A DNA stretch of 64,000 nt, from the NCBI GenBank assembly GCA_046482545.1, contig JAWOEX010000021.1, positions 103,041-167,040 of the forward strand, written 5' to 3'. The notes beneath the pieces are model-generated. The model did not search any database. It saw only the letters and a list, made by a program, of their open reading frames with translations, and was not told the origin of the DNA. Source of the DNA: Candidatus Thorarchaeota archaeon (GTDB taxonomy: Archaea > Asgardarchaeota > Thorarchaeia > Thorarchaeales > Thorarchaeaceae). Each line of letters opens with the position of its first letter. Position 1 is the stretch's first letter. The translations under genes and the position numbers were made by a program. Of the stretch, positions 781 to 51,382 are shown piece by piece.

Positions 781-835
781 TTCTTCCCTCTTCGGGCCTA
801 CGAACAGCTGGGTTGTTTAAATCTACGTTAGTACT

Positions 836-870
836 GAACGTGAGCTACATTTGTATCGAACGTGAGCTAC
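836..870. promoter_or_regulatory. Two copies of 13-nt direct repeat GAACGTGAGCTAC, spaced 22 nt
   Basis: Exact repeat at 836-848 and 858-870 in the intergenic region between divergent genes. Confidence 0.35.
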
Positions 871-1224
871 GATAAAAAGCTTGTCGCTAATCACTTCGCA
901 TTAGAATAATCGTTACATAAGTATCTGTAGTGTCCAGGAATCTATATCAAAGAAATCAGATTATCAGGTATTGGCTTATCTGTAGGATATCTGTCTGGCA
1001 AGTGTCTGAAGAAGACTTTCAATGAAGAGAACATAGGGGGCTCCATTAATCTCTGTGAGCCATCTCACTTTTTGTTTCAACATCAAATCACATCGCGACT
1101 AATTTTGCCGCCTCTTTCTGAACTCTTTTGTTCATCTGATAATTCGTGAGAAGATGACAAGTCTTATATGTTCCACGAGACCCATTGTAGGATAACATAT
1201 CCTATGATTTGGTGGATAAATGTC

Positions 1225-1788
1225 ATGAAAAGGGCGTTGGTCCTCGTTTGCCTGCTTGTATCCTTTACGCATTTCTTTGCTCCTATAACCAAAATCAGTA
1301 CATCTAATCATGTACCAGCTGCCGCGAGAATAGAACTGACAATCGATTTTGGCAACGGAACAGAACTAGTCTATTCTCAGGTAGAGGCAGAAACTGTTCT
1401 TGATGCGATTCGAAACGTCACATCAGTCGAAGTAGATTGGTATGGAGACCGAGCCTTTGTGACATCAATAGCAGGTGTGACAAACGAGGCAGAAACTGGT
1501 CTATGGTGGCAATACTGGGTAAATGGTCATCTGGGATCGGTGGCAGCAAACAAATACGATCTCAATGACAATGACACAGTTGCTTGGCGCCGAATTCCAC
1601 CAGAGTATACTGCCGCCACACAAAACAGCAGTGATCCTTTAGCCCTTCTTGCTTTGATAATTCTGCCAATTATTGGGATATCTGCAATATTAGGTATGTA
1701 CATCAGGAGACACGAAAATGATCAACAAAACAATAATCGCATTACTAATGATAACTTTGGTTTTCACCCCCCTTATGTCAACCACTGA
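1225..1788 (+). CDS. Secreted/membrane-anchored DUF4430-like protein (N-terminal signal peptide, C-terminal TM)
   Basis: Internal Met followed by a hydrophobic signal (MKRALVLVCLLVSF). Motif WYGDRAFVTSIAG...GLWWQYWVNGHLGSVAANKYDLNDNDTVAWRR resembles the DUF4430 fold. C-terminal hydrophobic anchor. Confidence 0.45.
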   Translation: MKRALVLVCLLVSFTHFFAPITKISTSNHVPAAARIELTIDFGNGTELVYSQVEAETVLDAIRNVTSVEVDWYGDRAFVTSIAGVTNEAETGLWWQYWVNGHLGSVAANKYDLNDNDTVAWRRIPPEYTAATQNSSDPLALLALIILPIIGISAILGMYIRRHENDQQNNNRITNDNFGFHPPYVNH

Positions 1789-2458
1789 GTACCATACAAT
1801 CCTCCAACCCACGTCAAATGGCGAGACTACCATTTCATGGAGCATTGAAGAAAGCCCAGATGTACCAGTTGAGTGGGGATGGAGCGGTGAAGGAGCTTGG
1901 ATGACAGAGGAGGAATCTTCAATGACCTTCCGCATCACCAACATTACTGACGTTGTCGAAGGTACTCTACACATTGGCAATCTAACCATAACCACCAATG
2001 ATACCACCATCGCGAGGGAACTCGTCATTGGAGTCTGGGGTTTGACACCTTTCTTCCCCGGGCTGGTCGTACCAATAGGCGACGAAAATATGCAAATCTT
2101 AAACGAAACAGCCAGAGCCTCTGCAGAAAGAGTATCAGGGAACTATATGAACGGGACAATGATTGTATCAGAGCAAGCGATTGAAGTAGATGACACAAGC
2201 TATGAGTGCATCACCTTCGACTATGAACAGGATTCTTCTGGATATGCCCAACCACAGATTACCCATCTTGCATACGATTGTGAAACAGGGGTCCTTGTAT
2301 GGGCAAACACTAGCTACTCGTTTGGTACACCTTACAATCTGTGTCTTTCGCTTGAAATGATAGCCCCACCATCTCCGAGCTCCATTCTTGCACTTGTGGG
2401 GATTGCAGTAATCGCTGTTGTTGCAATTATTATCATAATCAAGGTACGAGAGGGATAA
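1718..2458 (+). CDS. Cell-surface protein with N-terminal signal peptide, N-glycosylation sequons and C-terminal TM anchor
   Basis: Signal-like N-terminus. Many N-x-T/S sequons. C-terminal SPSSILALVGIAVIAVVAIIIIIKVREG anchor. Confidence 0.45.
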   Translation: MINKTIIALLMITLVFTPLMSTTEYHTILQPTSNGETTISWSIEESPDVPVEWGWSGEGAWMTEEESSMTFRITNITDVVEGTLHIGNLTITTNDTTIARELVIGVWGLTPFFPGLVVPIGDENMQILNETARASAERVSGNYMNGTMIVSEQAIEVDDTSYECITFDYEQDSSGYAQPQITHLAYDCETGVLVWANTSYSFGTPYNLCLSLEMIAPPSPSSILALVGIAVIAVVAIIIIIKVREG

Positions 2459-2482
2459 TCCTGCAGTAATGAAGGGATAGAC

Positions 2483-3118
2483 ATGAATCGGGGGCATTTA
2501 GAGCAGTACCACATCCGCCGAACGCGGTACGTTCCGATTGCCTCCCTAATGACCGCGCTCGCCCTCATAGGCATGTATGCACTTGTTGGTATCCCCAATG
2601 TTGAGCTAGGAACAGTCATTCTCTTCGTCACAGCGCTAGTATTCGGACTAAAAATGGGAATAGGCAGCATGTTGATAACGGCTGCCCTCTATGGATCATT
2701 GAATCCATGGGGTGGGCTTATTCCACAGATATGGATTAGTCAAGTGTTAGGATGGCTTTTGATTGTAATAGTTGGAAGCCTTCTCGGACATTCAGGGCCC
2801 AACTTAAAGCAATCACAACGAAACGGATTAGAGTTCTTTATACTCGGTGCTTTTCTAACAATCTATTTTGATGCGGTAACAAATCTTGGATATTCGCTGT
2901 CAACAGGTATTCCCTACGCCACCGCACTTATAGTGGGACTGCCCCTTATGGTGATTCATGTACTATCAAATGCTTTCCTCTTTGGGATTGTCGTTCCCCA
3001 ACTTGAGTCAACCATAAGAAGGGAGTTTGGTAATGATATATGGGAGCCCGTTATCAAAAATGATGACACAAACAATCCGAAAACTGTGGAAGCATCTCAC
3101 TTGATAAAAGAGGGGTAG
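2483..3118 (+). CDS. Polytopic membrane protein (ECF S-component-like)
   Basis: About six hydrophobic helices. Adjacent to the DUF4430 gene. Confidence 0.4.
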   Translation: MNRGHLEQYHIRRTRYVPIASLMTALALIGMYALVGIPNVELGTVILFVTALVFGLKMGIGSMLITAALYGSLNPWGGLIPQIWISQVLGWLLIVIVGSLLGHSGPNLKQSQRNGLEFFILGAFLTIYFDAVTNLGYSLSTGIPYATALIVGLPLMVIHVLSNAFLFGIVVPQLESTIRREFGNDIWEPVIKNDDTNNPKTVEASHLIKEG

Positions 3119-3126
3119 ATGAACTC

Positions 3127-3765
3127 TTGCATTGGAAAGAACAGATTAAGAAGCTTGTACAGCCAGCGGAGGGGCGTGTGTCTCCCGCCTTCAAACCGCA
3201 CCATGTTGCTGTTGCAATTGTGATGATTGGTCGAAGACAACCCCTTGGGCGATACGAACTCTGTGACACCATGTCAATTGGTGAGGGGAGTGCCAGAACT
3301 CTGCTAAGACGCCTAGGAGAAAGGGATTACATCACAGCCGAGGGACGACAAGGGCAGAAACTGACACATACAGGTCAAGAGATATTCGAGGCAATGATCA
3401 ATGATATTCCGCGAGGGCTCTATCTGGATGTTGAAGGGCTCGCAATGTATGAAATCTCCTACGGCAATTTGGTGAAACAGAAGGCGGAAGAGGTCACGGA
3501 TGGTATAAGACAACGTGATGAAGCAATAATCCAAGGAGGCTATGGTGAAGCAGGAGCAACAACATTGGTCTGCAAGGAGGGACTGCTGCTCATGCCGCCG
3601 AATAATTTCAACCCTCTCCTCAAATACGAAGACGAGACACTACTAATTATGGATAGTTTGCGACCCAAGGATGGGGATGTAGTAGTAATTGGATCAGCGA
3701 ATAATAGTGGACTGGCAAGAGAAATCGCAATGGCATCTTCTATGACGCTCCTTGGTGAGGAATAG
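3127..3765 (+). CDS. Hypothetical wHTH-containing protein
   Basis: ORF translation. The N-terminal segment LGRYELCDTMSIGEGSARTLLRRLGERDYI looks like a winged helix. Confidence 0.4.
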   Translation: MHWKEQIKKLVQPAEGRVSPAFKPHHVAVAIVMIGRRQPLGRYELCDTMSIGEGSARTLLRRLGERDYITAEGRQGQKLTHTGQEIFEAMINDIPRGLYLDVEGLAMYEISYGNLVKQKAEEVTDGIRQRDEAIIQGGYGEAGATTLVCKEGLLLMPPNNFNPLLKYEDETLLIMDSLRPKDGDVVVIGSANNSGLAREIAMASSMTLLGEE

Positions 3766-3767
3766 GC

Positions 3768-4574
3768 ATGCAATCTGACATTTACGGCAACGTGCCGGAC
3801 ATAGTTATAGATGTCCACGAAACGAAGGGCAAGCGGAAGAACGCAGTGAAGCATCTTATGTCCATGTTGGACAAAGAAGAAATTAACTATACAGTAGAAA
3901 AGCTGCCGATTGGCGATGTTCTAGGCACTGACGGGATTGCAATCGAGCGAAAAACCGTAAATGATCTTGTGCATACCTTGACAGGAAGCAAATCTGGCGT
4001 CCCACGTCTTAAGAAACAGATGGACGCTCTTCTTGAATATGAGCAACCATACTTACTCATTGAGAACTTGCTTGCAGTCCGCCGCGACCCGATGAAAGGA
4101 TGTGTGTATATCCCCTTTTCTTCAAAGAAGACGAAAAAGAAAGGGGGATATTACGTGACCATGGAGCGTGCAAGTTTCATCCATCCAAATTCGCTGGATG
4201 GATTGATTGATAGCATACGTGATCGCGGTATTGATATTCTAGAGGGTTTCAACGCGCTTCATTCAGCTGGACTTCTTTTCGGTATCCTAAATGAACAAGA
4301 CTGGGATGAAAGAGAGGTTACGCGGTTACCTGTAATTAGGACCCGGAAAGGGCTTGATAGCATGAGCGATGAACAGGAGTTCTTTGTGGCAGGTTTCCCT
4401 AACATCAACGCTGTCAGAGCAAAACAACTCTTGGAAAAATTCGGGAGCCCTTTCGAGGTTGTTACACGTACAGACGAATGGGGAGAAGTTCACGGAATAG
4501 GGCCCAAGACCGTTGAGGGGGTACGGAAAATGCTGTTTTCTAGTTATGAACCAGAGAAAGAAGACACGCCGTAG
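3768..4574 (+). CDS. ERCC4-domain nuclease (short XPF/Hef/Mus81-type, no helicase) with C-terminal (HhH)2
   Basis: ERK-type active-site motif GIAIERKTVNDL. C-terminal HhH motif GFPNINAVRAKQLLEKFGSPFEVVTRTDEWGEVHGIGPKTVEGV. Confidence 0.65.
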   Translation: MQSDIYGNVPDIVIDVHETKGKRKNAVKHLMSMLDKEEINYTVEKLPIGDVLGTDGIAIERKTVNDLVHTLTGSKSGVPRLKKQMDALLEYEQPYLLIENLLAVRRDPMKGCVYIPFSSKKTKKKGGYYVTMERASFIHPNSLDGLIDSIRDRGIDILEGFNALHSAGLLFGILNEQDWDEREVTRLPVIRTRKGLDSMSDEQEFFVAGFPNINAVRAKQLLEKFGSPFEVVTRTDEWGEVHGIGPKTVEGVRKMLFSSYEPEKEDTP

Positions 4575-4636
4575 CATTTAATAAACGATAACTATTTTAT
4601 GACCAAATAATAGTTACAAAACAAGGATGGTTACAT

Positions 4637-5725
4637 ATGGGCGACGATGTACGTATAGCCATAGCTGGACTGGGAAATTGTGCCTCTGCACTCATACAGG
4701 GTGTGCATTACTACAAAGATGCAAAAGCAGATGAAGAGGTTCCGGGCCTAATGCATGTTGACTTTGGGGGATATTTTCCGAAACACCTCAAGTTTGTGGC
4801 GGCTTTCGAAGCAAATGAGCGGAAGATAGGCAAAGATATCTCTGAAGCAATTTGGGAAGACCCAAATTGTTGTGAGAATTTTGTACCTGATTTACCCAAA
4901 ACAGGTGTCGAGGTATTACCTGGCCCAATTTCGGATGGTGTTGCAGACCACATGATGGATTCATTCTATGCCTATGATGATGATATTGAGCCCGTTGATG
5001 TGGCTGAAGAGCTCAAAGAAGCAGAAGCCGATATGTTGATTAACTATCTACCTGTGGGAAGCGCTGAAGGGGCACGGATATATGCAAAGGCGGCTCTCGA
5101 AGCCGGTGTTGCATTTGTCAATGCTATCCCCGAGTTTATTGTTTCCGACCCGAATGACCCAATAACCACGCAGTTCAGGGAGAAAGGCATACCATGTGCT
5201 GGTGATGATATCAAAAGCCAGCTAGGTGCTACCATTCTGCACAGAGTCTTGGCACAGCTGTTTGACAAGCGTGGTCTGATTGTTAATAATACATATCAGC
5301 TGAATATTGGAGGTAATACTGACTTCGAAAATATGCAGGTTGAGGATCGGCTGAGCAGCAAGCGAGTCAGTAAGACAGAAGCGGTCACAAGCTGCGTCAA
5401 GTATCATCTACCGACCAAAATCGGTCCGAGTGACTATGTCCCATTCCTTGACGATAATAAGATATGCTACATCTCCATGCGAGCCAATTCGTTCGGAGAC
5501 CTTCCAGTAGATGTGGATCTCAAGCTTTCAGTTCAGGACTCACCAAACAGTGCTGGAGTCATCATTGATGTGGCCAGAGCAATAAAGATAGCACTTGACC
5601 GGGGTGTAGGTGGCGAACTCTCAAGCATCAGTTCATACTCGTTCAAACACCCAAGATATCAAATTGATGACTTTGAGGCACGAAAGAGAGTAGATGAATT
5701 CATAGCTGGAGAAAGAGAGCGCTAG
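4637..5725 (+). CDS. myo-inositol-1-phosphate synthase (archaeal-type)
   Basis: 362 aa. N-terminal Rossmann segment RIAIAGLGNCASALIQGV. Overall match to archaeal MIPS-family signatures. Confidence 0.75.
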   Translation: MGDDVRIAIAGLGNCASALIQGVHYYKDAKADEEVPGLMHVDFGGYFPKHLKFVAAFEANERKIGKDISEAIWEDPNCCENFVPDLPKTGVEVLPGPISDGVADHMMDSFYAYDDDIEPVDVAEELKEAEADMLINYLPVGSAEGARIYAKAALEAGVAFVNAIPEFIVSDPNDPITTQFREKGIPCAGDDIKSQLGATILHRVLAQLFDKRGLIVNNTYQLNIGGNTDFENMQVEDRLSSKRVSKTEAVTSCVKYHLPTKIGPSDYVPFLDDNKICYISMRANSFGDLPVDVDLKLSVQDSPNSAGVIIDVARAIKIALDRGVGGELSSISSYSFKHPRYQIDDFEARKRVDEFIAGERER

Positions 5726-5758
5726 GTGTACAGAACAGTACCCTAGCCTTTCCCCCAT

Positions 5759-6883
5759 CTATATTTCCGTGAAGCTTTTCGCTTTATCTTCATCAAGTCG
5801 TTGGATAACCTCGACTAATAACCTCACAGCGTTTTCCACATCATCGAAATCAAGCATTCCATGATGAGAATGAATATGTCTTGTGGGTATACCTATGAAC
5901 AATGAGGGGGCACCCATGCCGGTTATATGGATAATACCAGCATCTGTACCACCACTCTTCAAGAACGCCGGCTGATGCTTCACGCCAATTTCCTCAGCGA
6001 TATCTAAAACGAATCTTCTAAATCTAGGGTTCGGTATCATTGAACCGTCGCCAGCAGAAATCGAGACGCCATTGCCCATCTTCTGGACGAGATCTTTTGC
6101 ACCGGGAACATCACCGGATATGTCAACGTCGAGGGCGAAACCTAAATCAGGTTTGACCATTTGTGCAGCCGTCCTAGCTCCTCGAAGACCCACTTCTTCC
6201 TGTGCGGTGGATACAGCATAAATGGTATTGGGATGATTCAGGTTATTGGTGCTAAGACGACGTAACACTTCTAACACAATGAAAACACCAATTCTATCGT
6301 CGAAGGCTTTTGCCACCCCGACGATGGTTTCATGAGTAGTTTCTTCCTCATTATCATCGTCTTCCTCTTTCCGAATCCGATCCATTGTTCGGAATTGTGC
6401 GTGGGGTACAGCTGGGTCGCCAACTTGGATACCTAACCCCTCTACTTCCTCCTTGGAACTGCAGCCAATATCGATATACATGTCTTTCATTTTAACTGGT
6501 TTCTTCCTTGTTTCATCATCCAGCACATGTGGAGGTGGGGCCCCAATCACCCCGATTATTTTGTCGTCCCCATTAGATGGTTTGATAACAACCTCATGAG
6601 TTAGCAATGTCTGATCCCACCAGCCTCCTAAGCTGTGGAATTTCAAGAAACCATCTTTTTTTATCTCAGTAACAACGAAGCCTATTTCATCGATATGCCC
6701 TGCAAGCATGATTTTTGGTCCAGAATCTCCGCGTTTGAAAATGACAGAGCCCATCCTATCATACAACACTTCGTCTGCAAATTCCTCTCCATAATCTCGT
6801 GCAAGCCTCTGAGCCTCATGTTCAAAACCACTAGGGCCAAAGGCATTGCATAGACGCTCCAAAAAATCGATATCTAAGTCCAT
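5759..6883 (-). CDS. M42 family (TET/FrvX) aminopeptidase
   Basis: Motifs MLAGHIDEIGFVVTEI and HSHHGMLDFDD. Typical M42 peptidase length. Confidence 0.75.
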   Translation of the reverse strand: MDLDIDFLERLCNAFGPSGFEHEAQRLARDYGEEFADEVLYDRMGSVIFKRGDSGPKIMLAGHIDEIGFVVTEIKKDGFLKFHSLGGWWDQTLLTHEVVIKPSNGDDKIIGVIGAPPPHVLDDETRKKPVKMKDMYIDIGCSSKEEVEGLGIQVGDPAVPHAQFRTMDRIRKEEDDDNEEETTHETIVGVAKAFDDRIGVFIVLEVLRRLSTNNLNHPNTIYAVSTAQEEVGLRGARTAAQMVKPDLGFALDVDISGDVPGAKDLVQKMGNGVSISAGDGSMIPNPRFRRFVLDIAEEIGVKHQPAFLKSGGTDAGIIHITGMGAPSLFIGIPTRHIHSHHGMLDFDDVENAVRLLVEVIQRLDEDKAKSFTEI

Positions 6884-7019
6884 TATTACACTTCATCCTT
6901 CTTGTGCTATCACGCAGGAATTCACTATAATTATGCTTATCGGCAGGACCAATCAAAGAATATAGAATAATATCATCTAGTCATGATTTTCGGCATATAA
7001 GAAGCAAGAATGGGTAGGT

Positions 7020-7586
7020 TTACAGTACCACGTTTTTTGCAAGCATCTCAAAAGCTTCTTCCACGTTCTGACCTGTTAGGGCACTGGTTTCCAGATACCC
7101 CGCTAAATCCTTCTTGATAACATATTCACGAGCTACTTCGGAACTGATAGTCCGTTGATCGTCCAAATCAACTTTGTTGGCCAGTACAATGATTGGAATG
7201 GACTCGTCTAGGGCTTTCTCGGTTTCTGCAATCCAATTGTCAAGAACATTGAATGTTGATTTCCGGGTGGTGTCGAAGACCAGCAAGGCTCCCTTTGCCC
7301 CGCGATAGTAGCTGTTTCGGATGAAGTCAAATCGCTTTTGTCCTGCCAAATCCCATATGAGAAGCTTAACTCGCTTCTCATTGCCACTTGAATCGTTTAC
7401 CGGTACTATCTTCACGGCGAATTGGCTTCCAATGGTTACTATGTATTGTTCAGTAAAGCGGTTGGTTAGAAATCGGTTGACTAGAGCGGTCTTTCCGCTA
7501 CCTCCAGCTCCTATCATGACCACTTTTCGTACAACGTGGAAATCTTGAGATGGTGAATTTGACACCGAATAATCCATTTCAATCAT
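7020..7586 (-). CDS. Small GTPase of Ras superfamily (Rab-like)
   Basis: P-loop GAGGSGKT. G3 motif WDLAGQKRF. Rab-type YYRGAKGALLVFD. G4 motif NKVD. G5 motif ETSALTG. Confidence 0.75.
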   Translation of the reverse strand: MIEMDYSVSNSPSQDFHVVRKVVMIGAGGSGKTALVNRFLTNRFTEQYIVTIGSQFAVKIVPVNDSSGNEKRVKLLIWDLAGQKRFDFIRNSYYRGAKGALLVFDTTRKSTFNVLDNWIAETEKALDESIPIIVLANKVDLDDQRTISSEVAREYVIKKDLAGYLETSALTGQNVEEAFEMLAKNVVL

Positions 7587-7796
7587 CCCATAGCCTTCGT
7601 CTTAGACAATTCATGTTGGTACAAGGGAAGCGTTTAGGCCTTATTTCTATATGATACATATAGCCTTTTTCGGGTCAGACAATCACTGCGCATTGAGACA
7701 TCTAGACAATCAGGATTGGCGCGTTATTTTCTCCATTACACTACGAACCAGAAGATATTATATCGCTACGAAGAGCTAGAATTTTACGCCGGGAGG

Positions 7797-7994
7797 ATGA
7801 CGAAGATGCAATTGGTAACAGTAAAAATGAATCAACTTTACATTAAATCGCTAGACAAGCTTGTTGAACTAGGCATGTATCCTTCCCGTAGCGAAGCTAT
7901 ACGAGTTGCAATACGAGATCTCCTGCAGAAAGAACTATGGCCGGAGGAGGGCATGCCAGCTAAACAAGAGCTGCGTGCTGAGACCTCCGAATAG
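7797..7994 (+). CDS. Ribbon-helix-helix (CopG/Arc family) DNA-binding protein
   Basis: The segment MTKMQLVTVKMNQLYIKSLDKLVELGMYPSRSEAIRVAIRDLL fits the RHH pattern. A likely internal start at 7797 falls within ORF 7716..7994. Confidence 0.5.
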   Translation: MTKMQLVTVKMNQLYIKSLDKLVELGMYPSRSEAIRVAIRDLLQKELWPEEGMPAKQELRAETSE

Positions 7995-8083
7995 GGGCCT
8001 AATCAGGAATAATATATAAGCGAAACAACTAACACAATATACTTTAGTAGCACAATTCAAAGAGAAAACGGGGCACGAGAATA

Positions 8084-8614
8084 ATGAATCTGGGAATTCT
8101 TCTGAAGAGTATGAAACTAGCCTTTCGATCGAAGAGACGCGTTCTTTCATTCATAGTCATTTATTCAATACTCATCGTGCTGGTAGCAAAAGGGATTCAA
8201 GGTTCAGCTGGTTCCCTTCTGGAAATGCTCTTGTGGCCCCTGACTGCGCTGGTGGTTGCAACAGTGTATGCCATATTGATATCGCAGTTCCGTAAGCGTG
8301 ATGTAAGCATCCTCAAATGCATCGGCTGGACAAATCACGATGTGATGCTTCTGGTGGTAGGTGAGGTGGTTGTCGTTTCATTAGCCGCGTTTTTCCTAGT
8401 TTTCCAAGTCAGTGTCGAAATCCTAGGGTTGGTTGCCTATTTTGAGGGGTTGGACACAGGACTCCTCCAAATGCTACTGGACCTTATCGCAGTCGAATGG
8501 CAGCCAATGCTCGTTACACTCATCTATATCGTAGTGCTACAGCTTCCAGGAGTCGGTCTAGCACATTACCGCATGATGAAAATACCGCCTATGCAGGCGC
8601 TAAGGGAGGAATAG
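8084..8614 (+). CDS. Small membrane protein (FtsX-like permease fragment?)
   Basis: Four hydrophobic helices. Lies directly upstream of an ABC ATPase. Confidence 0.4.
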   Translation: MNLGILLKSMKLAFRSKRRVLSFIVIYSILIVLVAKGIQGSAGSLLEMLLWPLTALVVATVYAILISQFRKRDVSILKCIGWTNHDVMLLVVGEVVVVSLAAFFLVFQVSVEILGLVAYFEGLDTGLLQMLLDLIAVEWQPMLVTLIYIVVLQLPGVGLAHYRMMKIPPMQALREE

Positions 8615-8616
8615 GC

Positions 8617-9303
8617 ATGACTAATCCAATCCTAAGAGCAGAAGAAGTGAACAAGGAGTACGGTCGGGGAAAGAAGACAGTAGCTGCACTCAAGAGTGTT
8701 GATATAGAAGTAGCCCCGGGCGAGTTTGTGGCGGTCCATGGACCATCTGGATGTGGTAAGTCAACTCTCTTGCATGTCATGGCTGGACTCGAACAGCCAA
8801 CTTCTGGTCGAATTCTGATTGATGGCGTTGATGTAACATTGGTCAGTGAAAGGGACCTTCCACGCCTCCGCGCAAAGAAGATTGGATTTGTCTTTCAATC
8901 ATTCCTCCTCATCGAAGATTTGACCTCATTTGAGAACGTACAGTCAGTTTTGTGGCCAGATGAGGAATTGAACAAGAAGAAACAGGAAGCGAAGGCCCTT
9001 CGAGTATTGCGCGAAGTTGATATGTTAGAACGTAAAGATCATTTTCCACGCCAACTTAGCGGCGGAGAACAACAACGGGTAGCCATAGCTCGTGCACTTG
9101 TTAATGATCCGCCGATTCTCTTTTGCGATGAACCCACGGGCAATCTTGACTCAGAAAGTGGCGAGTCAATCATGAAAATCATCGCCAAGCTGAACAAGGA
9201 AAAAGGTATGACTGTAATTCTTGTTACGCACGATGAAAGTCTGGCAAAATTCGCCCAGAGAATCCTTCGTATGAAAGATGGCGTAATCACCTCCGATAAG
9301 TAA
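8617..9303 (+). CDS. ABC transporter ATP-binding protein (MacB/LolD-like)
   Basis: Walker A GPSGCGKST. Signature LSGGEQQRVAIARAL. Walker B ILFCDEPTGNLD. Start ATG at 8617. Confidence 0.8.
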   Translation: MTNPILRAEEVNKEYGRGKKTVAALKSVDIEVAPGEFVAVHGPSGCGKSTLLHVMAGLEQPTSGRILIDGVDVTLVSERDLPRLRAKKIGFVFQSFLLIEDLTSFENVQSVLWPDEELNKKKQEAKALRVLREVDMLERKDHFPRQLSGGEQQRVAIARALVNDPPILFCDEPTGNLDSESGESIMKIIAKLNKEKGMTVILVTHDESLAKFAQRILRMKDGVITSDK

Positions 9304-9387
9304 AGAAAATTGCGGATAATTTGCAGTGGCTAAGGTTTTGGAGCAATAGAGAGAATTTGTCAGAAAATGAAGAGTGTGTAGGAATCC

Positions 9388-10215
9388 ATGGCCATTGAGG
9401 ATTGTAAGGAAGCTCAGGCTATTGCAGAGGCAAGAGCCAAAGAGGGTAAAAACAAAGTTGCTATGAATTTATTCTACAAGACAGCAGAATGCTGGAACCG
9501 CTGGGAATCGTTTGTGAAGGCTGCTCAAGCGTATGAAAGAGCGTACGAACACGGGATGTTGTGCCATGAGTACAGTACTGCAATTGACTATCTCCTCAAG
9601 GGAGCAATGGCGTGGATAAGACAAGGAGAATACGAGAAGTTTGAACTTGATTATCAAATAGCTGCTGAAGGGCATATTATGGCTGCAGAGAAAGACAAGA
9701 ACCCCCAACACTTCATTGAGGGGGCGTTCTGTGCCATCGTTGGAGGAGATATAGATTTCGCCAAGGAGCTTATCCATGCGTCAGTAGAGACCTTGAAAGG
9801 AACTGCAAAGGAAAAAACAAACCTTGCCTTGATGCTTCTTGAATATCAGTTCGGTGATGCTGACAGATACATCGAATCTGCTCTAAAGAGAGTGCTCGAT
9901 AGGAAAGGGGTGAAGAAAGTTCGACAAATTTTTACATTGACCTTTGAAGGATTTGTGCGAACTTCTCTAGAATCTGAAGCGGCTGTAACTGTTACAAGCC
10001 TTTCAGAAAGCACAGGGTTGTCAGAGAATGTAGTGGAATCGCTTGTCAGAAGAGGCACAAGAAATGGACACATTCCTGCATTTCTTGATGAGGAAGCCCT
10101 CGAACTGATAGTTGATTCGGACCGCTTCGACCTGTCGAGGCTGAAACGAAGAAAAGGACCTATACAAAGCCGTGAACTGGAGGATCCAGGAGCTTGGGAT
10201 ATGGAACTAGACTGA
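9388..10215 (+). CDS. Hypothetical alpha-helical protein
   Basis: ORF with no recognisable motifs. Confidence 0.4.
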   Translation: MAIEDCKEAQAIAEARAKEGKNKVAMNLFYKTAECWNRWESFVKAAQAYERAYEHGMLCHEYSTAIDYLLKGAMAWIRQGEYEKFELDYQIAAEGHIMAAEKDKNPQHFIEGAFCAIVGGDIDFAKELIHASVETLKGTAKEKTNLALMLLEYQFGDADRYIESALKRVLDRKGVKKVRQIFTLTFEGFVRTSLESEAAVTVTSLSESTGLSENVVESLVRRGTRNGHIPAFLDEEALELIVDSDRFDLSRLKRRKGPIQSRELEDPGAWDMELD

Positions 10216-10374
10216 TATACTTTGTCTGTAACCATCAAAACTTTCGCAGTTTTGAAGGTTACCTCAGAAAGATTTTTACCACAACTAAACCGGTTATGTT
10301 TAAGAATCAATAAATATGCAATAACGTTTTTAGTATGGGTTCAGAATTGCGCAACAACGCGCCTGGTGATATGA

Positions 10375-10593
10375 ATGTCTGAAGGGCTAAGGTGGTTCCG
10401 GTGTCCAGTTTGCAAGAAGACAATATACTGGAAGCTGCCAACTGACACCCTAAAACAAGTAGAGCGATTTCCAGCACCTCTTGTGATTAAACACGAAGAT
10501 CACTACCTCATCGTTTATGTTGACAGTCATTATCAGCTGGCTGACACGGAAATAGCTGTAGCATTTGTCGAGGGCATGGGCGAGCAGGAATAG
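10375..10593 (+). CDS. Small zinc-ribbon protein
   Basis: CPVCKK motif in a 72-aa ORF. Confidence 0.3.
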   Translation: MSEGLRWFRCPVCKKTIYWKLPTDTLKQVERFPAPLVIKHEDHYLIVYVDSHYQLADTEIAVAFVEGMGEQE

Positions 10594-10654
10594 CGGAATC
10601 TCATTTTATGATTCTAGCATCCTCTTTTTTGCGGAACACCAGAAAACCGTTCAT

Positions 10655-11206
10655 TCAGATTTTGTCAAGTCCGTTATCCAGAGCCCATTCAAGGACTTGT
10701 TGAGCCTGAGAACTGGATAGTCTCCACCCGCGCAGATTAGATACGAGTTTACGGATACCACCTAACCAATCTCGAAGCACACTGTTGACTCGTGCTCGAA
10801 GTGATTCGTCCTCCAATTCTTCCAGAAGAGGCAAGAACTTGCCAACCAGACTTTGGGACAGAGCCAGAACGGTTTCAACCCTTGCTAGCCACTCCTCACG
10901 TGGGAGGCCATCGAGGGTCTGAGCCACAGAGAGGTGATAATCATATTGAGCTGTCAAGTATCTCAAACGCCAGCTTAAAAATTCAATAAGTAAAGTAGCA
11001 TGAGCATTACTCGGAGCAGTTTTGATTACTAAGTCAAGAAAACGCTGTGTCATCGCATCAGCTGACTGGCTGGCATCGAAATACAGGGCTATCGCTTGCT
11101 GGTAGTCTTGGCTCGTCAGATAGTCTGCAGCTTCTTTTGTTGCTTCCTTGAACCGTTGGATGACCTCTTTTGTCGGTTTACCTTCAGCGTATTCCATCTT
11201 GGTCAC
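10655..11206 (-). CDS. Hypothetical helical protein
   Basis: ORF only. Confidence 0.4.
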   Translation of the reverse strand: MTKMEYAEGKPTKEVIQRFKEATKEAADYLTSQDYQQAIALYFDASQSADAMTQRFLDLVIKTAPSNAHATLLIEFLSWRLRYLTAQYDYHLSVAQTLDGLPREEWLARVETVLALSQSLVGKFLPLLEELEDESLRARVNSVLRDWLGGIRKLVSNLRGWRLSSSQAQQVLEWALDNGLDKI

Positions 11207-11218
11207 ACACTACTATGG

Positions 11219-11623
11219 CTATTCGTGGAGGTGGTGGAGCTCGGTCTCTAATACCACATCGAGCTGGTCCAACCAACCTCGAAAGTCTTCCATTTTATCC
11301 TCTGGTTTTCTAGAAAAGTAACCTTCCCATACACATTTGTCACTTAATGGACAAAAGCCTGTTGAATGAATTAGGCGTAATTTGAGTTCTCGCATCCGTT
11401 TCAGGAGAAGGTGTGAAACCTCCTCAAAGGATGAAACCATGACACATACGCGCAGCAAAGAAATCTCGGAGTTTTGAACCGGAATCAACCGGATAAAATT
11501 GCTTCGCGTTCCAATGAGTAAAACAGTTTCTCCTTCTTTGAAGCCCACATCATTTTGGAGCGCTCCAAGGCTGATTCTACCATCCAGTACTGTAGCAAGA
11601 ATTCCGTTCGTCAGCTCCTTCAT
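11219..11623 (-). CDS. AbrB/MazE (SpoVT-AbrB swapped-hairpin) domain protein with a Cys-containing C-terminal domain
   Basis: N-terminal segment DGRISLGALQNDVGFKEGETVLLIGTRSNFIRLIP resembles the AbrB fold. Confidence 0.4.
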   Translation of the reverse strand: MKELTNGILATVLDGRISLGALQNDVGFKEGETVLLIGTRSNFIRLIPVQNSEISLLRVCVMVSSFEEVSHLLLKRMRELKLRLIHSTGFCPLSDKCVWEGYFSRKPEDKMEDFRGWLDQLDVVLETELHHLHE

Positions 11624-11945
11624 TCATAGCACACTCCTTGCCCACCCGGTTGCTAATCGTAGTTCTTGATCTCATAGCCAACGCCACTCCGTCCAATCGG
11701 ATTCGGTCGGAACAACAGCGACATCTCTGTAACCAAGCAATTGCGCACTGTCGAGTATAGGTTCTCGATATCTGCAGAAATGTTCCCATCCTGCCTTAAT
11801 AAGTTGAACATAATCCATTTCAACAAGCACACATTCATCCTACTAACTTCTGTTAGTCAATTTAGCCCAAGTTTCTTGCGCTTTGCTTCTATATTGTAAA
11901 TATCAACTGGTAGTGATATGTATGTTTTTTGCAGATATGGCTAAG

Positions 11946-12926
11946 TTAGAGTGGTGGTTCATTGAGCCGCTTATATTCATCTGTTGCATTGGTCCAGTTG
12001 ATGAAATCCTGACTTGGAGGGCGCTCTTCATACAAGCGCTGTCTATCCGCTTCTAGACAGCTGATATCTTCGCGTTCCAGCTCAGCCATACACAAGACGC
12101 AATTGCCGCTTTCCTCTGCGGCGTTCATACTTGGCTTGAGCCATTCTTTCCAACTAAGTGAGCGCATGAGATGATGGTCCACAACTAGTGTTTCCACAGC
12201 ATTTGCAAGCGTAACCAAACAAAAGAGAGCTGTTTGTCGATTTTGTTCATCAAATAAATGTCTCGGTAGATAAATCGGCGGGCCACCGACTATCATGACA
12301 TCCGAATTCAATGATAACAGATATGACAGAGTTTTCCTGTTCGATGGGCCCTGAATATCTGGCGCAAAAACTACTGTGGCGTCCTTGTGCTTTACACAGG
12401 TGACGACCACATAGCCCAATGGCTTAGCGTCAGGGCCATGTGGTAACGATTCACTATAAGAAACGGTCGTATCACCAAATTCGAATTCTCTACCATCCGT
12501 CCAGACCAGTTCCTCAGCAGCATCGCCAACATGTTTTCTGAAATAGTAAGCTCTCTTCCGCTGGGATGGGTTGATGTTATCACGGTGGTCTTTGAGCAAG
12601 ACTCGCTTGTTCTCAAACATGTGATTGGTGTCTTCTAGCGAACTGAAGTTATAGCGATAATTTGTAAACGTCGGCCGAACATGATCATAGTGATAGTGCG
12701 ATATTGAGAGTACATCGGATTTTCTTGCCAATTCAAAAATGTCTGCAAGAGCGGTTTTCAGAGCATCATACTCCAGAGGGTGCGGCTCCAAACCAAAACG
12801 CATTGCCAGACCAGCTGACGGATCAAAGAGAATGGTGATGTCAGGAGTTGTAACTTGAGTACAGAGCGACCTTACACCCATGCTTTCAGAGGCTACAGCA
12901 TGAATCTCGGTATCTCCTATCTTCAA
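11946..12926 (-). CDS. MBL-fold metallo-hydrolase
   Basis: ISHYHYDHV matches the HxHxDH metal-binding motif. Confidence 0.5.
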   Translation of the reverse strand: MKIGDTEIHAVASESMGVRSLCTQVTTPDITILFDPSAGLAMRFGLEPHPLEYDALKTALADIFELARKSDVLSISHYHYDHVRPTFTNYRYNFSSLEDTNHMFENKRVLLKDHRDNINPSQRKRAYYFRKHVGDAAEELVWTDGREFEFGDTTVSYSESLPHGPDAKPLGYVVVTCVKHKDATVVFAPDIQGPSNRKTLSYLLSLNSDVMIVGGPPIYLPRHLFDEQNRQTALFCLVTLANAVETLVVDHHLMRSLSWKEWLKPSMNAAEESGNCVLCMAELEREDISCLEADRQRLYEERPPSQDFINWTNATDEYKRLNEPPL

Positions 12927-13516
12927 CGTGATACCTTCCGAAAATATCCCAGTATATAGTCAGATCCGGATTTTGTAAGCTCGGCCTCGTATGATCGAGT
13001 CACCGGGTTATTGAGTTCAAACGTTGCAAACATTTGCCAATCACTGGGTATCAATTCATCCTTTCGTTGCCTAATATCATCTACACTAAAGGGGCCAATT
13101 GTTCCTTCCCGATGGTTTTCCTTGAAATCATCAACCACAGCACTGTTAACGAAAATCAAGAAATGTTCCAAGAGATTTCCTGCCGTATCAACAAGGCGTT
13201 CCGAAACGAGTCCCTGGTATTTGTATTCCTTCACAGACGTTGCCTCTGTCTCCTCTTGTACCTCCCTGAGTGCAGCTTCCTTGACATGCTCACCGGGCTC
13301 GATTTTTCCACCAACAAGACTTAACAAATTCTCATACGGAGCTCTCTTACGCTTCATGAAGAGGTAACTGTCCTGCTGCTTGAGAATCGTAACGACAATA
13401 GGCGTGATTCCAGGCACTTCAAGTCCCTCTTGTGCAATCTCTCTCATACTGACTGAATATGGCAATTTAAATTTGAATGGTTTAAGAAGCCTACCTGCAG
13501 GAAAACAGAAAGCCAA
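12923..13516 (-). CDS. NUDIX hydrolase
   Basis: Nudix box GGKIEPGEHVKEAALREVQEETEA. The true start is probably internal. Confidence 0.65.
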   Translation of the reverse strand: MAFCFPAGRLLKPFKFKLPYSVSMREIAQEGLEVPGITPIVVTILKQQDSYLFMKRKRAPYENLLSLVGGKIEPGEHVKEAALREVQEETEATSVKEYKYQGLVSERLVDTAGNLLEHFLIFVNSAVVDDFKENHREGTIGPFSVDDIRQRKDELIPSDWQMFATFELNNPVTRSYEAELTKSGSDYILGYFRKVSR

Positions 13517-13560
13517 GATTCATAGACCCTCAGCCATCTCCTTTTCTTCGGGTTTCAATA

Positions 13561-15021
13561 GTGGGTGCATTACTGGATGAAGAAGTCAGGAAAAAAGTCC
13601 TGAACAAAATCACGCCTACCAAAGAAGAAATTCTTAACCAACAGAAAATGATAGCTAGACTTTCTAATCAATTGGAAACGTATGGGAAACGGCGGGGAAT
13701 TAAGTATGAAACCATAGAAGCCCATGGTTCCACAGGTAAGAAGCAGACTCAGCTTAAAGGATCCTCAGATATCGATTTGTTTGTAGCTTTGAATCCAAGC
13801 GATTATGATAGGATTCTCTCTTTATCCCAAGATGAGAGAGACAGAAAGCTCACTGAATTGTTGGATGGATTTGTTGATAACTGGTTCTACCCTGCGTTCA
13901 AAGAGCTGAACCCCACCAAACTCCAAAAAATCTATTCTGAGCATCCTTACCTTTCGCTTCACTTGGAAGGACAGGAGATTGATGTTGTTTGTTGCTTCAA
14001 TTTGTCAAGAGATGAGATTGCAGCAGAAGGAACAATTACGGCGGTGGATCGAACACTCCATCACACTAGCTATATCATCAAACATTTGAAGAAATCCATG
14101 CGATCAGATATTCGGATACTCAAATCATTCGTCAGGGCTGCTCACGTATACGGAGATAAATGCGCTATTGGAAGAATGGGATTTACGGGTTACGCTCTGG
14201 AACTCTTAGTCATCAACTCTGGTGATTTTGAAGGGGCTATTAGGCAAATCAAAGCATTAGAAAAGAAACCTATTGACCCTGCGGATAGGTCTCTCGATGA
14301 GCTGAAGAACAAACATGAATTTCATGACGACTACATCTTCATAATTGACCCAACGGATTATGATAGAAACGTTGCAGCTAGTTTCGATTCGAGAGGATAC
14401 AAATGGCTCAAATTGCGTTGTGATGAGTTACTGAAGACTGCGAAAAGGGCAGAAGAACATAACATGGTTCATCTACTGATTGAGGGAGAAATTCCCACAG
14501 AGCCACTACCACAGTGGCTGAAGCCTCACTCACTTTCTGTTGAATTTCAATCAGTCCAACCAGTGCACTACACCATCTTGAGGGATAAGCTATACAAGCT
14601 AGCGAGCAAAATTGTTGCACGCATGAAAGAGGAAAGAACCGGCGAGAAGAGATTTGGGAAGACTCTAGCTGAAGTCTATTTTGAAAATGATAGATTCGCT
14701 CTTGGTATTGTGGTGGAAAAAGCCAATATCTCGCCGGAGTATGACCGAAAGGGGCCCCCGTTAAAGATGGATGAAGCTTGCACGAAATTTATGAAAGCGA
14801 ACTCTCAAGTTTTCAAGCAGGGAGGTTATCTTTGGTCCAAGGAAAAGAGAAAATTCACCTCCGCAAATGCATTCTTCCAGTATTTAGTAAAAAGAGAGAC
14901 CATAAAGGGCTTAGAACGGACCAAGAAATCAATTGTTTCAGACCGAGTATTGAACACGCTTTATCGTTATGTCATGCAGGTGGAAGAAATTCCAGTTGAG
15001 AGAGGTAATCAGATTGGCTAA
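13561..15021 (+). CDS. cca: tRNA CCA-adding enzyme, archaeal class I
   Basis: Matches archaeal CCA enzyme blocks: GSTGKKQTQLKGSSDIDLFV, EHPYLSLHLEGQEIDVVCCF, TAVDRTLHHTSYI, GFTGYALELLV, FIIDPTDYDRNVAASF. Confidence 0.8.
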   Translation: MGALLDEEVRKKVLNKITPTKEEILNQQKMIARLSNQLETYGKRRGIKYETIEAHGSTGKKQTQLKGSSDIDLFVALNPSDYDRILSLSQDERDRKLTELLDGFVDNWFYPAFKELNPTKLQKIYSEHPYLSLHLEGQEIDVVCCFNLSRDEIAAEGTITAVDRTLHHTSYIIKHLKKSMRSDIRILKSFVRAAHVYGDKCAIGRMGFTGYALELLVINSGDFEGAIRQIKALEKKPIDPADRSLDELKNKHEFHDDYIFIIDPTDYDRNVAASFDSRGYKWLKLRCDELLKTAKRAEEHNMVHLLIEGEIPTEPLPQWLKPHSLSVEFQSVQPVHYTILRDKLYKLASKIVARMKEERTGEKRFGKTLAEVYFENDRFALGIVVEKANISPEYDRKGPPLKMDEACTKFMKANSQVFKQGGYLWSKEKRKFTSANAFFQYLVKRETIKGLERTKKSIVSDRVLNTLYRYVMQVEEIPVERGNQIG

Positions 15022-16087: not shown

Positions 16088-16164
16088 CAACCCCCAAAAG
16101 AATCCCACACAAACTGAAAGATTTTAAGTTCCTAATTCAGACAACATCTTAGAGGAACCAAATA

Positions 16165-16458
16165 GTGGCAAAAAAGAGACGATCCGGCGGACGTAGCAAA
16201 AACAAGTCGGGCAGAACAGGAACAGTCCAATGCTCTAAATGTGGAGCAATTGTTCCTGCTGACAAAGCAAAGAAGTATACAAGAACAGTATCTCCAGTTG
16301 ATCCTCAGCTTGCTCGCGAGCTGCGAGAACAGGGAGCTTACATTCGGACTAGCAGAAGAACTGAGTATTACTGCATAAGTTGTGCTGTCCATTATGGTAA
16401 GGTGAATATCCGCTCTGAGGAAGACCGAAGAGACATAAATGACAGATATCACAGGTAG
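16165..16458 (+). CDS. rps26e: Ribosomal protein S26e
   Basis: MAKKRRSGGRSKNKSGR...VQCSKCGAIVPADKAKK...YYCISCAVHYGKV matches the S26e zinc-ribbon architecture. Confidence 0.7.
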   Translation: MAKKRRSGGRSKNKSGRTGTVQCSKCGAIVPADKAKKYTRTVSPVDPQLARELREQGAYIRTSRRTEYYCISCAVHYGKVNIRSEEDRRDINDRYHR

Positions 16459-24136: not shown

Positions 24137-24198
24137 TCCATAGTGAATGTTGCTATCTTCTCATAAGTGCTTTATTGTGATTTCTATCATTAGAGGCA

Positions 24199-24675
24199 TC
24201 ACCAGACAAGCCGCACATTCCATATGCAGCGGTCAGAGCCCGTTGCCCTAGACATTTCTTGAAAGACTTTGGCATCAACACCCTTGAGTTCTAATATGGA
24301 CTCCAAGATGCCACTGAAGATTTCTCCATAGCCAAAACCCCTCATGCCTTCAAGATGTACATCTTGGCACCATACACATTCTTCATCTGTTATTCGTACA
24401 CTTCCTCGAGCTGTATCCATATCGATTTCATCTGGCTTCCTGTCGTAAAGGGCTCTGAACACTACCTCAACTAGCTTTGATACATCTTCTCGAGTTTGGA
24501 TAGTTTCTGGTGTGTTCTCGGCAATATCTGAGTTGAGATACAAGTTGGTAGATATATCTCGCCCCACCTTCCGAAGTTGTTCGTTGGCTTTTTCGATACT
24601 GTCAGTGGAAGCCAAAACCCGGTCAACAATTCGAGAGTAAAGAGTTACCAGTAGTGGATTTTTAACGCTAACCAT
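24199..24675 (-). CDS. V4R-domain protein
   Basis: EECVWCQDVHLEGMRGFGYGEIFSGILESILEL...SDRCIWNV. Paralog of 27212..27763. Confidence 0.5.
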   Translation of the reverse strand: MVSVKNPLLVTLYSRIVDRVLASTDSIEKANEQLRKVGRDISTNLYLNSDIAENTPETIQTREDVSKLVEVVFRALYDRKPDEIDMDTARGSVRITDEECVWCQDVHLEGMRGFGYGEIFSGILESILELKGVDAKVFQEMSRATGSDRCIWNVRLVW

Positions 24676-24705
24676 TTTGGGTTGACCTCTAACTTAATTC
24701 GTGAG

Positions 24706-25704: not shown

Positions 25705-25924
25705 TATCTGTGTACCTCTTCTGGGGATTGGGGCAGACCTAAACCTATCTCTGCATGAGAATGCAACCGCGGCAATCTGAAAAGGATTGCGGTTGAATCC
25801 TCGCATGACGACAGTCTCAGTTTGTCCTAATCAATCTAAAGGTGACATACTGGCCGTAGCATATTAACGCCAGTAACACAGGGATTCCATACCAAGAAAA
25901 TGATTAAGAGTGATTGAATGTTAG

Positions 25925-26554: not shown

Positions 26555-26556
26555 TC

Positions 26557-27211: not shown

Positions 27212-27763
27212 TTAATTGGCCTTTATTGTCCATGTGCACGTTTCATCGCCCACAGCCTGACAAGACTCTTGGTAGGATTCGCCCTTGAAACCCCGCAAGT
27301 CAAGTACTGCTTGAAATACGCCGCTAACAAGATTGCAATATTGCAGTCCGGGCATTTCTGTTATTTGAACATCTTGACAGATTACACAGTTATCATCTGT
27401 GAACTTAATCGTCTTCTTGTCGTCACTTATCCAAGTAGATGTGAACTCTTGGCCCGAATTGACCTTATACGCTAATCTGAGTGTGGATGCAAACTCATGA
27501 AACTCACCCGCGTGTTCGCTTATCTTTTCCGCATAGTCCATTAGAAGGTGTTCTCCAACACGAAAACCAATATCCTTCAGCTGACCGTTGATTACTTCCA
27601 CGCTTTGAGAGTGCTGAATCAAGTAGTTCATCAGCTCTCTATATACGGACTGGAACAGTGGTTTAGCCACTTTGTCAATCTTTAGGGCCCATGCAAGCTT
27701 TCCTTTCAATCCCATTGTGTTTCCCTCATCGTCATTCTTTTCGTGTTCTATTCGTGCGAACAA
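27212..27763 (-). CDS. V4R-domain protein
   Basis: DNCVICQDVQITEMPGLQYCNLVSGVFQAVLDL...ESCQAVGDETCTWTI. Confidence 0.5.
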   Translation of the reverse strand: MFARIEHEKNDDEGNTMGLKGKLAWALKIDKVAKPLFQSVYRELMNYLIQHSQSVEVINGQLKDIGFRVGEHLLMDYAEKISEHAGEFHEFASTLRLAYKVNSGQEFTSTWISDDKKTIKFTDDNCVICQDVQITEMPGLQYCNLVSGVFQAVLDLRGFKGESYQESCQAVGDETCTWTIKAN

Positions 27764-51279: not shown

Positions 51280-51382
51280 ATGGGGCCGAGAGCGGGAATT
51301 GAACCCGCGGCTAGGGAGCCACAATCCCCAAGGTTGCCAGAGGGCCTGCCCAATGTCATCAGGCAGTCTACCCCATCTCGGC
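51280..51382 (-). tRNA. tRNA-His (GUG) with about 25-nt intron in the D-loop
   Basis: The reverse complement is GGCCGAGA...GGGGATTGTGGCTCCCT...GCGGGTTCAATTCCCGC-TCTCGGC-C-CCA. Encoded G-1 plus discriminator C73. Anticodon loop TTGTGGC. A 35-nt stretch lies between D-stem halves GGGT/ACCT, with an internal hairpin CTGCC-N11-GGCAG. Confidence 0.55.

Follow-up and report, generated by a model that had tools for sequence, protein, structure and literature searches.

We propose that the open reading frame (ORF) on the minus strand at positions 7020 to 7586 of a 64-kb stretch of Candidatus Thorarchaeota DNA (64,000 nucleotides, hereafter the window) codes for a stand-alone Rab-like small GTPase of a single domain, which most likely operates as a GTP/GDP switch (probability about 0.9). 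A first-pass annotation made from the sequence alone had already singled out a Rab-type GTPase with the segments WDLAGQKRF and YYRGAKGALLVFD, and both can indeed be read in this ORF. Residues 21-186 match the Pfam family Ras (PF00071) with E = 5e-48 and 163.2 bits (gathering cut-off 21.6), and the NCBIfam model small_GTP (TIGR00231) scores 90.7 bits (cut-off 42.5). The Pfam match is far beyond chance and, judged by its sequence, the ORF is a real gene.

Family assignment and sequence motifs

All five G boxes of the Ras superfamily are present in the GTPase and invariant in 40 orthologs (Table 1), with the core of G3, DLAGQ, at residues 79-83. The closest characterized relative is Thor-Rab of Thorarchaeota SMTZ1-45 (KXH73347.1; PDB 7EZB/7EZD/7EZE; Tran et al., 2024, Commun Biol 7:273; PMC10933270), which is the best match in a PDB sequence search (7EZB, 154 bits, 48% identity) and is followed in the ranking by Rab4A, Rab14, Rab25, Ypt1, Rab11 and Rab7; the best 60 matches are Rabs without exception (60/60). 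Predicted structure gives the same picture. An AlphaFold2 (AF2) model built with the 40 orthologs as input reaches a mean pLDDT of 80.1 and a pTM of 0.79, with low confidence limited to switch I and to residues 1-13 of an N-terminal extension of about 20 residues, and the best 50 Foldseek matches of this model in the PDB are again Rabs, 7EZB among them, at TM scores of about 0.75-0.80.

The five RabF motifs of the GTPase read IGSQF / KLLIW / RFDFIR / YYRGA / LVFDTT and thereby keep 19 of 27 consensus positions. Thor-Rab likewise scores 19 and seven eukaryotic Rabs score 18-25, compared with 10 for Ran, 7-10 for Ras/Rap, 7 for Arf, 4 for MglA and 3-4 for Rho/Rac. Identities in BLASTP follow a similar gradient, from 48% for Thor-Rab, 43% for Rab4A and 35-41% for Rab7, Rab11, Rab8 and Rab1 (34-43% for eukaryotic Rabs overall) through 34% for Ran and 29-33% for Rap, Rho and Ras down to 23% for Arf and 22% for MglA. 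Membership of the Era or EngA families is contradicted by the corresponding NCBIfam scores (Era 21.9 bits vs. a cut-off of 237; EngA 23.6 vs. 306.7) and by the length of 188 aa with a single domain. The earlier choice of a Rab-type over an MglA- or Era-type protein therefore holds, since all best PDB and Foldseek matches are Rabs and identity to MglA is so low.

At the same time, the defining C-terminal feature of Rabs is missing. The GTPase has neither a prenylation motif (CC, CXC or CAAX) nor a hypervariable tail: it contains no cysteine at all, and its C-terminus (...AKNVVL) ends 2-3 residues past helix alpha-5. A cysteine within the last six residues is found in just 2 of 120 homologs. What the protein does share with the Asgard Rab-like GTPases of the Thor-Rab type is a lone G domain, the RabF motifs, the absence of a C-terminal cysteine and an Asgard genome.

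In a neighbor-joining (NJ) tree of 43 sequences (162 columns, 200 bootstraps), the ortholog clade of the GTPase is recovered with 83% bootstrap. The paralogs in this tree came from a contig scan by exact peptide patterns and are distant relatives (27-47% identity), mostly from Asgard, with none of the 65-85% orthologs among them; the same scan also gave distant relatives in metagenome-assembled genomes (MAGs) of Thermoplasmata and Bathyarchaeia. With no prenylated tail and a basal position without deep support in this tree, the protein is, on the sequence evidence, rightly labeled an 'Asgard Rab-like GTPase' and not simply a Rab. Published maximum-likelihood and Bayesian trees likewise place archaeal Rab-like proteins in a basal polytomy (PMC4915359).

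Several points weigh against our reading. No deeper node of the NJ tree reaches 20%, and the cluster of eukaryotic Rab, Ran, Ras and Rho does not include the Asgard clades. Of the reference sequences used for BLASTP, the tree and the RabF scores, only RAN and RAB1A were compared with full-length PDB chains, which they match; the Rab4A and Thor-Rab fragments were taken from the PDB search output. Biochemistry exists only for Thor-Rab, the 48%-identical Asgard Rab. Moreover, as no partner, GTPase-activating protein (GAP), guanine nucleotide exchange factor (GEF) or membrane anchor can be named, 'Rab' denotes the sequence and fold of the GTPase rather than a trafficking role.

Table 1. Coordinates of the GTPase gene, its motifs and the other features discussed, numbered from the first position of the window.
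Feature	Position	Strand	Evidence and remarks
M42 aminopeptidase	5759..6883	minus	Pfam Peptidase_M42, 317 bits; 136 bp downstream of the GTPase gene
Rab-like small GTPase, coding sequence	7020..7586	minus	188 aa, ATG start; GenBank MFO7835936.1
G5, ETSAL, residues 166-170	7077..7091	minus	alignment, orthologs
G4, NKVD, residues 137-140 (guanine specificity)	7167..7178	minus	alignment, orthologs
RabF4/RabF5 region, YYRGAKGALLVFDTT, residues 93-107	7266..7310	minus	YYRGA 5/5, LVFDTT 4/6 consensus positions
G3/switch II, WDLAGQKRFDFIR, residues 78-90, with catalytic Gln83 and RabF3-like segment	7317..7355	minus	alignment, orthologs
Switch I/G2, YIVTIGSQF, residues 48-56, with T51 and RabF1-like IGSQF	7419..7445	minus	alignment
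G1/P-loop, GAGGSGKT, residues 26-33	7488..7511	minus	sequence; invariant in 40 orthologs
BRE/TATA-like element, GAAAAAGGCTATATG	7657..7671	minus	predicted promoter; upstream, with about 70-85 nt to the GTPase ATG
RHH/CopG protein, 62 aa	7806..7994	plus	Pfam RHH_1; ORF span 7716-7994; call from Logan contig L001
PCI-like 275-aa protein	9388..10215	plus	MFO7835940.1, 'hypothetical protein'; AF2 mean pLDDT 87.6
Ribosomal protein S26e	16165..16458	plus	Pfam, 70.9 bits; GenBank MFO7835948.1, '30S ribosomal protein S26e'
TRAPPC3-like, ortholog of crystallized Thor-TRAPPC3	24199..24675	minus	233 bits to 7YH3; Pfam TRAPP, 33 bits
TRAPPC3-like paralog, more divergent	27212..27763	minus	86 bits to 7YH3, 41 to 6AQ3; Pfam TRAPP, 34 bits
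Ribosomal protein L13e, 69 aa	29862..30071	minus	Pfam Ribosomal_L13e, 46.6 bits; GenBank MFO7835964.1
tRNA-His(GUG)	51284..51382	minus	Rfam tRNA, 42.4 bits; probable intron of about 25 nt inserted at about 51342-51367

Relation to Thor-Rab, eukaryotic Rabs and MglA

Like the window GTPase, Thor-Rab is a single Thorarchaeota G domain with a WDLAGQ switch II, it lacks C-terminal cysteines and its C-terminus is cut right after alpha-5. The two are nevertheless paralogs and not orthologs, given their 48% identity and their separate NJ clades, and they differ in four places: the P-loop is a Ras-like GAGGSGKT in the window GTPase and GDGAVGKT in Thor-Rab, switch I carries V50 at the position of Arg37 in Thor-Rab, the beta2-beta3 hairpin is 3 residues longer in the window GTPase, and Thor-Rab has no such N-terminal extension. 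Other Thorarchaeota paralogs lack the switch-I arginine of Thor-Rab as well (PMC10933270). Thor-Rab binds GDP and GTP-gamma-S and has a slow intrinsic GTPase activity similar to that of human Rab11B (PMC10933270).

Eukaryotic Rabs (closest are Rab4A, Rab14, Rab11/25, Ypt1/Rab1, Rab7 and Rab8) share G1-G5 and the catalytic glutamine with the GTPase, and RabF1-F5 are mostly kept, with YYRGA identical. They differ by a prenylatable cysteine and a hypervariable tail, by threonine in the WDxAGQ motif where the GTPase and nearly all Asgard relatives examined have leucine, and by a beta2-beta3 hairpin in which the GTPase carries a 5-residue insertion. The GTPase fits no eukaryotic Rab subfamily. The archaeal Rab-like proteins described by Surkont and Pereira-Leal (2016; PMC4915359) also share Rab motifs without belonging to a subfamily and lie in a basal polytomy, with which the position of the GTPase in our NJ tree, at deep nodes below 20%, agrees.

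The RabF motifs and the Rab-like fold would also suit a Rab in the eukaryotic sense, i.e., a lipid-anchored protein cycled by Rab escort protein (REP) and GDP dissociation inhibitor (GDI) that serves membrane identity or vesicle traffic, and the window encodes TRAPPC3-like and Yip1-family proteins whose eukaryotic relatives act on Rabs. We consider such a role very improbable. The protein has zero cysteines and no hypervariable tail, and in the NJ tree, with its deep nodes below 20%, it does not nest among eukaryotic Rabs. No REP, GDI or Rab geranylgeranyl transferase (GGTase) was found among the scanned ORFs of the window, in line with the published absence of REP or GGTase homologs for Thorarchaeota, where Thor-Rab itself lacks prenylation cysteines (PMC10933270). 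GFP-tagged Asgard proteins showed no membrane targeting in HeLa cells, and Thor-TRAPPC3 is homodimeric and thought to bind a ligand rather than to act as a GEF (PMC10933270); in addition, the TRAPPC3-like genes of the window are unlinked, lying 17-20 kb from the GTPase gene.

A second alternative, to which the Roadblock genes named in the first-pass annotation might point, is a polarity GTPase of the MglA type that works with an MglB-like Roadblock GAP from a nearby gene. MglA/MglB, the bacterial polarity GTPase with its Roadblock GAP, is like our protein a prokaryotic switch of the Ras superfamily, and Roadblock proteins and MglA-like GTPases do occur in Asgard genomes (PMC10933270). However, MglA is aligned by BLASTP with only 30 bits, its G3 reads TVPGQ where the GTPase has DLAGQ, and its intrinsic switch-I arginine corresponds in our alignment to V50 (arginine position from PMC10933270). 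Nor did a Roadblock/LC7 gene turn up among the ORFs scanned in the window or in the 7-8 kb around six orthologs. At the level of sequence these differences refute MglA membership, and we regard the whole alternative as extremely improbable.

The several Roadblock/LC7 proteins reported for the window by the first-pass annotation could not be recovered. Pfam Robl_LC7 has no match at E <= 0.001 in any ORF scanned, a set that takes in nearly every non-overlapping ORF from 90 aa upward and several shorter ones. A second Pfam scan at E <= 5, of ten mostly small ORFs that lack a family, again gave no Roadblock, and the concatenated unassigned ORFs matched no Thor-RB, MKD1-RB, MglB or LAMTOR chain among the PDB sequences. 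GenBank has the name 'hypothetical protein' for each of the five small unassigned ORFs checked there. This negative result covers sequence searches, and a fold divergent enough to need structure comparison could escape it.

Conservation and proposed mechanism

Identity to the GTPase is 65-85% in more than 100 Asgard clusters. The ortholog group (63-85%), seen so far in MAGs of Thorarchaeota type, is far more conserved than the relatives recovered from other Asgard and non-Asgard lineages (27-47%). Among the 40 orthologs (63-84%), hardly any substitution occurs in the P-loop, in most of helix alpha-1, in switch I with beta2 (residues 48-59) or in beta3 with switch II (residues 78-90). The C-terminal half varies. 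Invariant switch regions combined with a variable C-terminal half suggest conserved partners, and the sequence pattern points to the switch surfaces as the part that such partners read.

We infer the following cycle for the Rab-like GTPase. By homology with Thor-Rab, GAGGSGKT, Thr51, DLAGQ with Gln83, NKVD and ETSAL would bind Mg-GTP and support slow hydrolysis. Switch I and switch II would shift conformation with the bound nucleotide and be read by partner proteins, and a GAP or a GEF would probably be required to drive the cycle. Fast hydrolysis in particular probably needs an external, trans-acting GAP, because V50 replaces the switch-I arginine that is built into MglA and Thor-Rab. As there is no cysteine and the chain ends right after alpha-5, the protein cannot be geranylgeranylated; membrane association, if any, would then proceed through partners rather than a lipid tail. 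Expression would be driven by the gene's own BRE/TATA-like promoter (B recognition element and TATA box), divergent from the gene run of the RHH protein and ABC transporter.

Gene neighborhood, synteny and transcription

The M42 peptidase and the ribbon-helix-helix (RHH) protein that the first-pass annotation had placed beside the GTPase gene are both found by Pfam (Table 1), and the statement that no GAP or GEF gene is adjacent also stands: within about 10 kb of the GTPase gene in the window, no gene matches a known GAP or GEF family in Pfam (TBC, DENN, Vps9, Sec7, longin and Roadblock). Around six orthologs, too, there is no match to a known GAP/GEF, Roadblock or longin family within 7-8 kb. 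Two candidates for a hidden or linked regulator were considered and rejected. The 275-aa protein yields a PCI-like fold in AF2 and Foldseek and no known GAP or GEF fold, and the TRAPPC3-like genes were discarded as a linked GEF on account of their distance and of the publication of Thor-TRAPPC3 as a ligand-binding homodimer (PMC10933270).

The gene order of about 16 kb (window positions 1-16100) recurs in six MAG contigs (L074, L076, L078, L080, L081 and L082), whose GTPase orthologs are 68-85% identical; where names were seen, these contigs are assigned to Thorarchaeota, Sifarchaeia or Lokiarchaeota. The block runs HDAC - CCA enzyme - NUDIX - three hypotheticals - 275-aa protein - ABC ATPase - FtsX - RHH, followed by the divergently oriented GTPase gene, and continues beyond it with M42 - MIPS - ERCC4 - DUF4443 - ... 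- DUF4430. The RHH/CopG gene heads the run of RHH, FtsX and ABC ATPase genes, and its adjacency to the GTPase gene is kept in 7/7 loci. This adjacency belongs to a long syntenic block and is by itself no sign of a functional link. The sole difference seen among the seven loci is the loss of the M42 peptidase in L074.

The core AAAAGGCT(A/T)(T/A)AT(A/G) of the predicted promoter is kept in 6/7 orthologous intergenic regions, with a weaker form in L082. On the side of the RHH gene there is a separate conserved ATATAAT element, and the M42 gene has its own TATA-like element of the type CATAATTAT, present in most loci. Monocistronic transcription of the GTPase gene is therefore plausible, given the upstream BRE/TATA-like element, the separate element of the M42 gene and the missing M42 gene in L074; an obligatory operon of the GTPase and the M42 peptidase was rejected on the latter two observations. 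The divergent promoter region also contains a perfect inverted repeat, CTATATG-TAT-CATATAG at 7647-7663 (-), which overlaps the TATA-like element and which, unlike the BRE/TATA core, is not conserved in the orthologous loci.

The model of the 275-aa protein combines a TPR-like helical solenoid with a winged helix. Its best PDB folds are the PCI subunits of the COP9 signalosome, the proteasome lid and eIF3 (E about 3e-4, TM 0.3-0.44), several homologs carry precomputed hits to PF01399 (PCI) and some to PF14938 (SNAP), and its named homologs are nearly all from Thorarchaeota. On the basis of the model it appears to be a stand-alone PCI-like protein that is seemingly not annotated as such. Three further conserved proteins of the syntenic block, at 10655-11206, 11219-11623 and 11946-12926, have no Pfam family. 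About 1.7 kb before window position 1, on the same contig (L001, 11883-12845), lies a larger, multidomain GTPase. Its N-terminal region spans about 120 aa and precedes a Ras/Roc-like G domain with 31% identity to the Rab-like GTPase; the L074 ortholog of this larger protein (16127 onward) measures 573 aa.

Host and other signature genes

The host is an Asgard archaeon, as the first-pass annotation had concluded, and this is established by exact protein matches to one Thorarchaeota MAG contig together with the shared synteny. The GTPase is 100% identical to MFO7835936.1, deposited as 'MAG: Rab family GTPase [Candidatus Thorarchaeota archaeon]' on a contig of 265,970 bp, and fourteen further window proteins (15 in all) match exactly on the same contig, including S26e, L13e, lysyl-tRNA synthetase (LysRS), a Yip1-family protein, PAC2, a TRAPPC3-like protein and several hypotheticals. 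NCBI taxonomy places Candidatus Thorarchaeota within the kingdom Promethearchaeati (Asgard).

These data also bear on the origin of the gene. Since eukaryotic Rabs are the best named relatives outside the archaea, one could suspect a chimeric contig on which the gene is eukaryotic contamination or was recently acquired by the archaeon from a eukaryote. The GTPase gene occupies the same position in 7 independent assemblies, and this synteny refutes contamination or transfer, the chance of which we regard as practically negligible. In addition, GC content is flat across the window (43-46%), the gene is flanked by archaeal genes (those for class I LysRS, an archaeal CCA-adding enzyme, aIF5A and S26e), and identity to any eukaryotic Rab does not exceed 43%, in contrast to the 65-85% shared with the more than 100 Asgard clusters.

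The argument that had been offered for the host was weaker than its conclusion, because Rab-like GTPases, S26e, L13e and tRNA introns occur beyond Asgard (the last being common in archaea) and the Roadblock genes were not found. Single Rab-like GTPases are known in Thermofilum, Caldiarchaeum, Thermoplasmatales and Aciduliprofundum (PMC4915359). S26e and L13e have a scattered distribution among archaea, and L13e has been traced to the ancestor that Cren-, Thaum- and Korarchaeota have in common (TACK; PMC3353972). The pair speaks against most Euryarchaeota and not for Asgard over TACK.

S26e, L13e and a tRNA with a probable intron were correctly recognized. For S26e, the Pfam match and the GenBank name agree; L13e is likewise present, its gene lying on the minus strand while the plus-strand frame is broken by stop codons. 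Both carry these names in GenBank as well, yet score slightly below the equivalog cut-offs of NCBIfam (S26e 113.4 vs. 118 bits; L13e 72.4 vs. 96 bits), so that, by sequence score, the Thorarchaeota proteins look somewhat diverged from the sequences from which these models were built. The tRNA in question is tRNA-His(GUG). According to the Rfam covariance model its D-loop measures 33 nt where the model has 5, and the extra stretch of about 25 nt folds as a 9-bp hairpin at a site that is not canonical for introns; both G-1 and the 3' CCA are encoded in the genome. ARAGORN reported an 80-nt tRNA and did not flag an intron, the insertion being revealed by the covariance model.

TRAPPC3-like genes and other observations

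The most diagnostic gene of the window was missed by the first-pass annotation. This is the TRAPPC3-like gene at 24199-24675, named 'hypothetical' in GenBank, whose crystallized ortholog is 7YH3 ('TRAPPC3 from Thorarchaeota SMTZ1-45'); 6AQ3, to which the second, more divergent copy was also compared, is a eukaryotic TRAPPC3. Both TRAPPC3-like genes are more Thorarchaeota-specific than the signature genes named earlier. They lie in the region 23582-28661 (-), which also holds a V4R-domain gene at 23582-24136, and each is directly preceded by a same-strand gene for a protein of 309-366 aa (27732-28661 and 24706-25806) with a weak HTH_47 hit only and no meaningful PDB sequence relatives. Each TRAPPC3-like gene and its preceding gene together look like a duplicated two-gene module.

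Further eukaryote-flavored or GTPase-related genes are scattered over the window. At 37032-38870 (+), a 612-aa 'hypothetical protein' matches the SNAP (soluble NSF attachment protein) family at its N-terminus with 56.6 bits and also contains TPR repeats. A Yip1-domain membrane protein is encoded at 58311-59126 (+), 51 kb from the GTPase gene (76 bits; GenBank 'Yip1 family protein'); this domain is Rab/Ypt-interacting in eukaryotes, yet widespread in prokaryotes. The only other GTPase in the window is a CobW/HypB-type metallochaperone at 54749-55399, 6 kb past a nickel/cobalt gene set at 45226-48385 that comprises CbiM, CbiQ, a CbiO-like ABC ATPase and NikR (RHH plus NikR_C). Beside the tRNA-His gene, two short adjacent ORFs (51933-52235 and 51693-51908, both minus), the upstream one with a weak metallo-beta-lactamase (MBL) match (E = 6e-4, 20 bits), look like pieces of one MBL-fold gene, possibly the result of a frameshift, of pseudogenization or of an assembly error.

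Significance

Asgard Rab-like GTPases were recognized with Lokiarchaeum and analyzed in 2016 (PMC4915359), a Thorarchaeota Rab was crystallized and assayed in 2024 (PMC10933270), and since 2015 the family has been part of the case for pre-eukaryotic building blocks of membrane trafficking. The GTPase described here is itself already known, the exact protein being deposited in GenBank under a Rab family name, and it brings no new biology. Its value is that it marks the window as Asgard and adds another tail-less, cysteine-free Rab-like switch. It is mildly notable that this paralog is unusually conserved and keeps the same genomic position in 7/7 contigs without a linked regulator gene; the strong conservation and the fixed position make the GTPase a reasonable candidate for functional work.

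A further reading of the ortholog group is unlikely. The fixed genomic position, the invariant P-loop, helix alpha-1, switch I, interswitch and switch II, the cysteine-free, tail-less form and the extended beta2-beta3 hairpin could indicate that the GTPase serves Thorarchaeota as a housekeeping switch and has its own set of partners, possibly among the conserved unannotated neighbors (the PCI-like 275-aa protein, or the 134-aa and 183-aa proteins), or the group could be one of the archaeal lineages nearest to the stem of the Rab, Ran, Ras and Rho radiation. If either were true, this Rab-like GTPase would be a better model of a pre-eukaryotic Rab than the crystallized, more divergent paralog.

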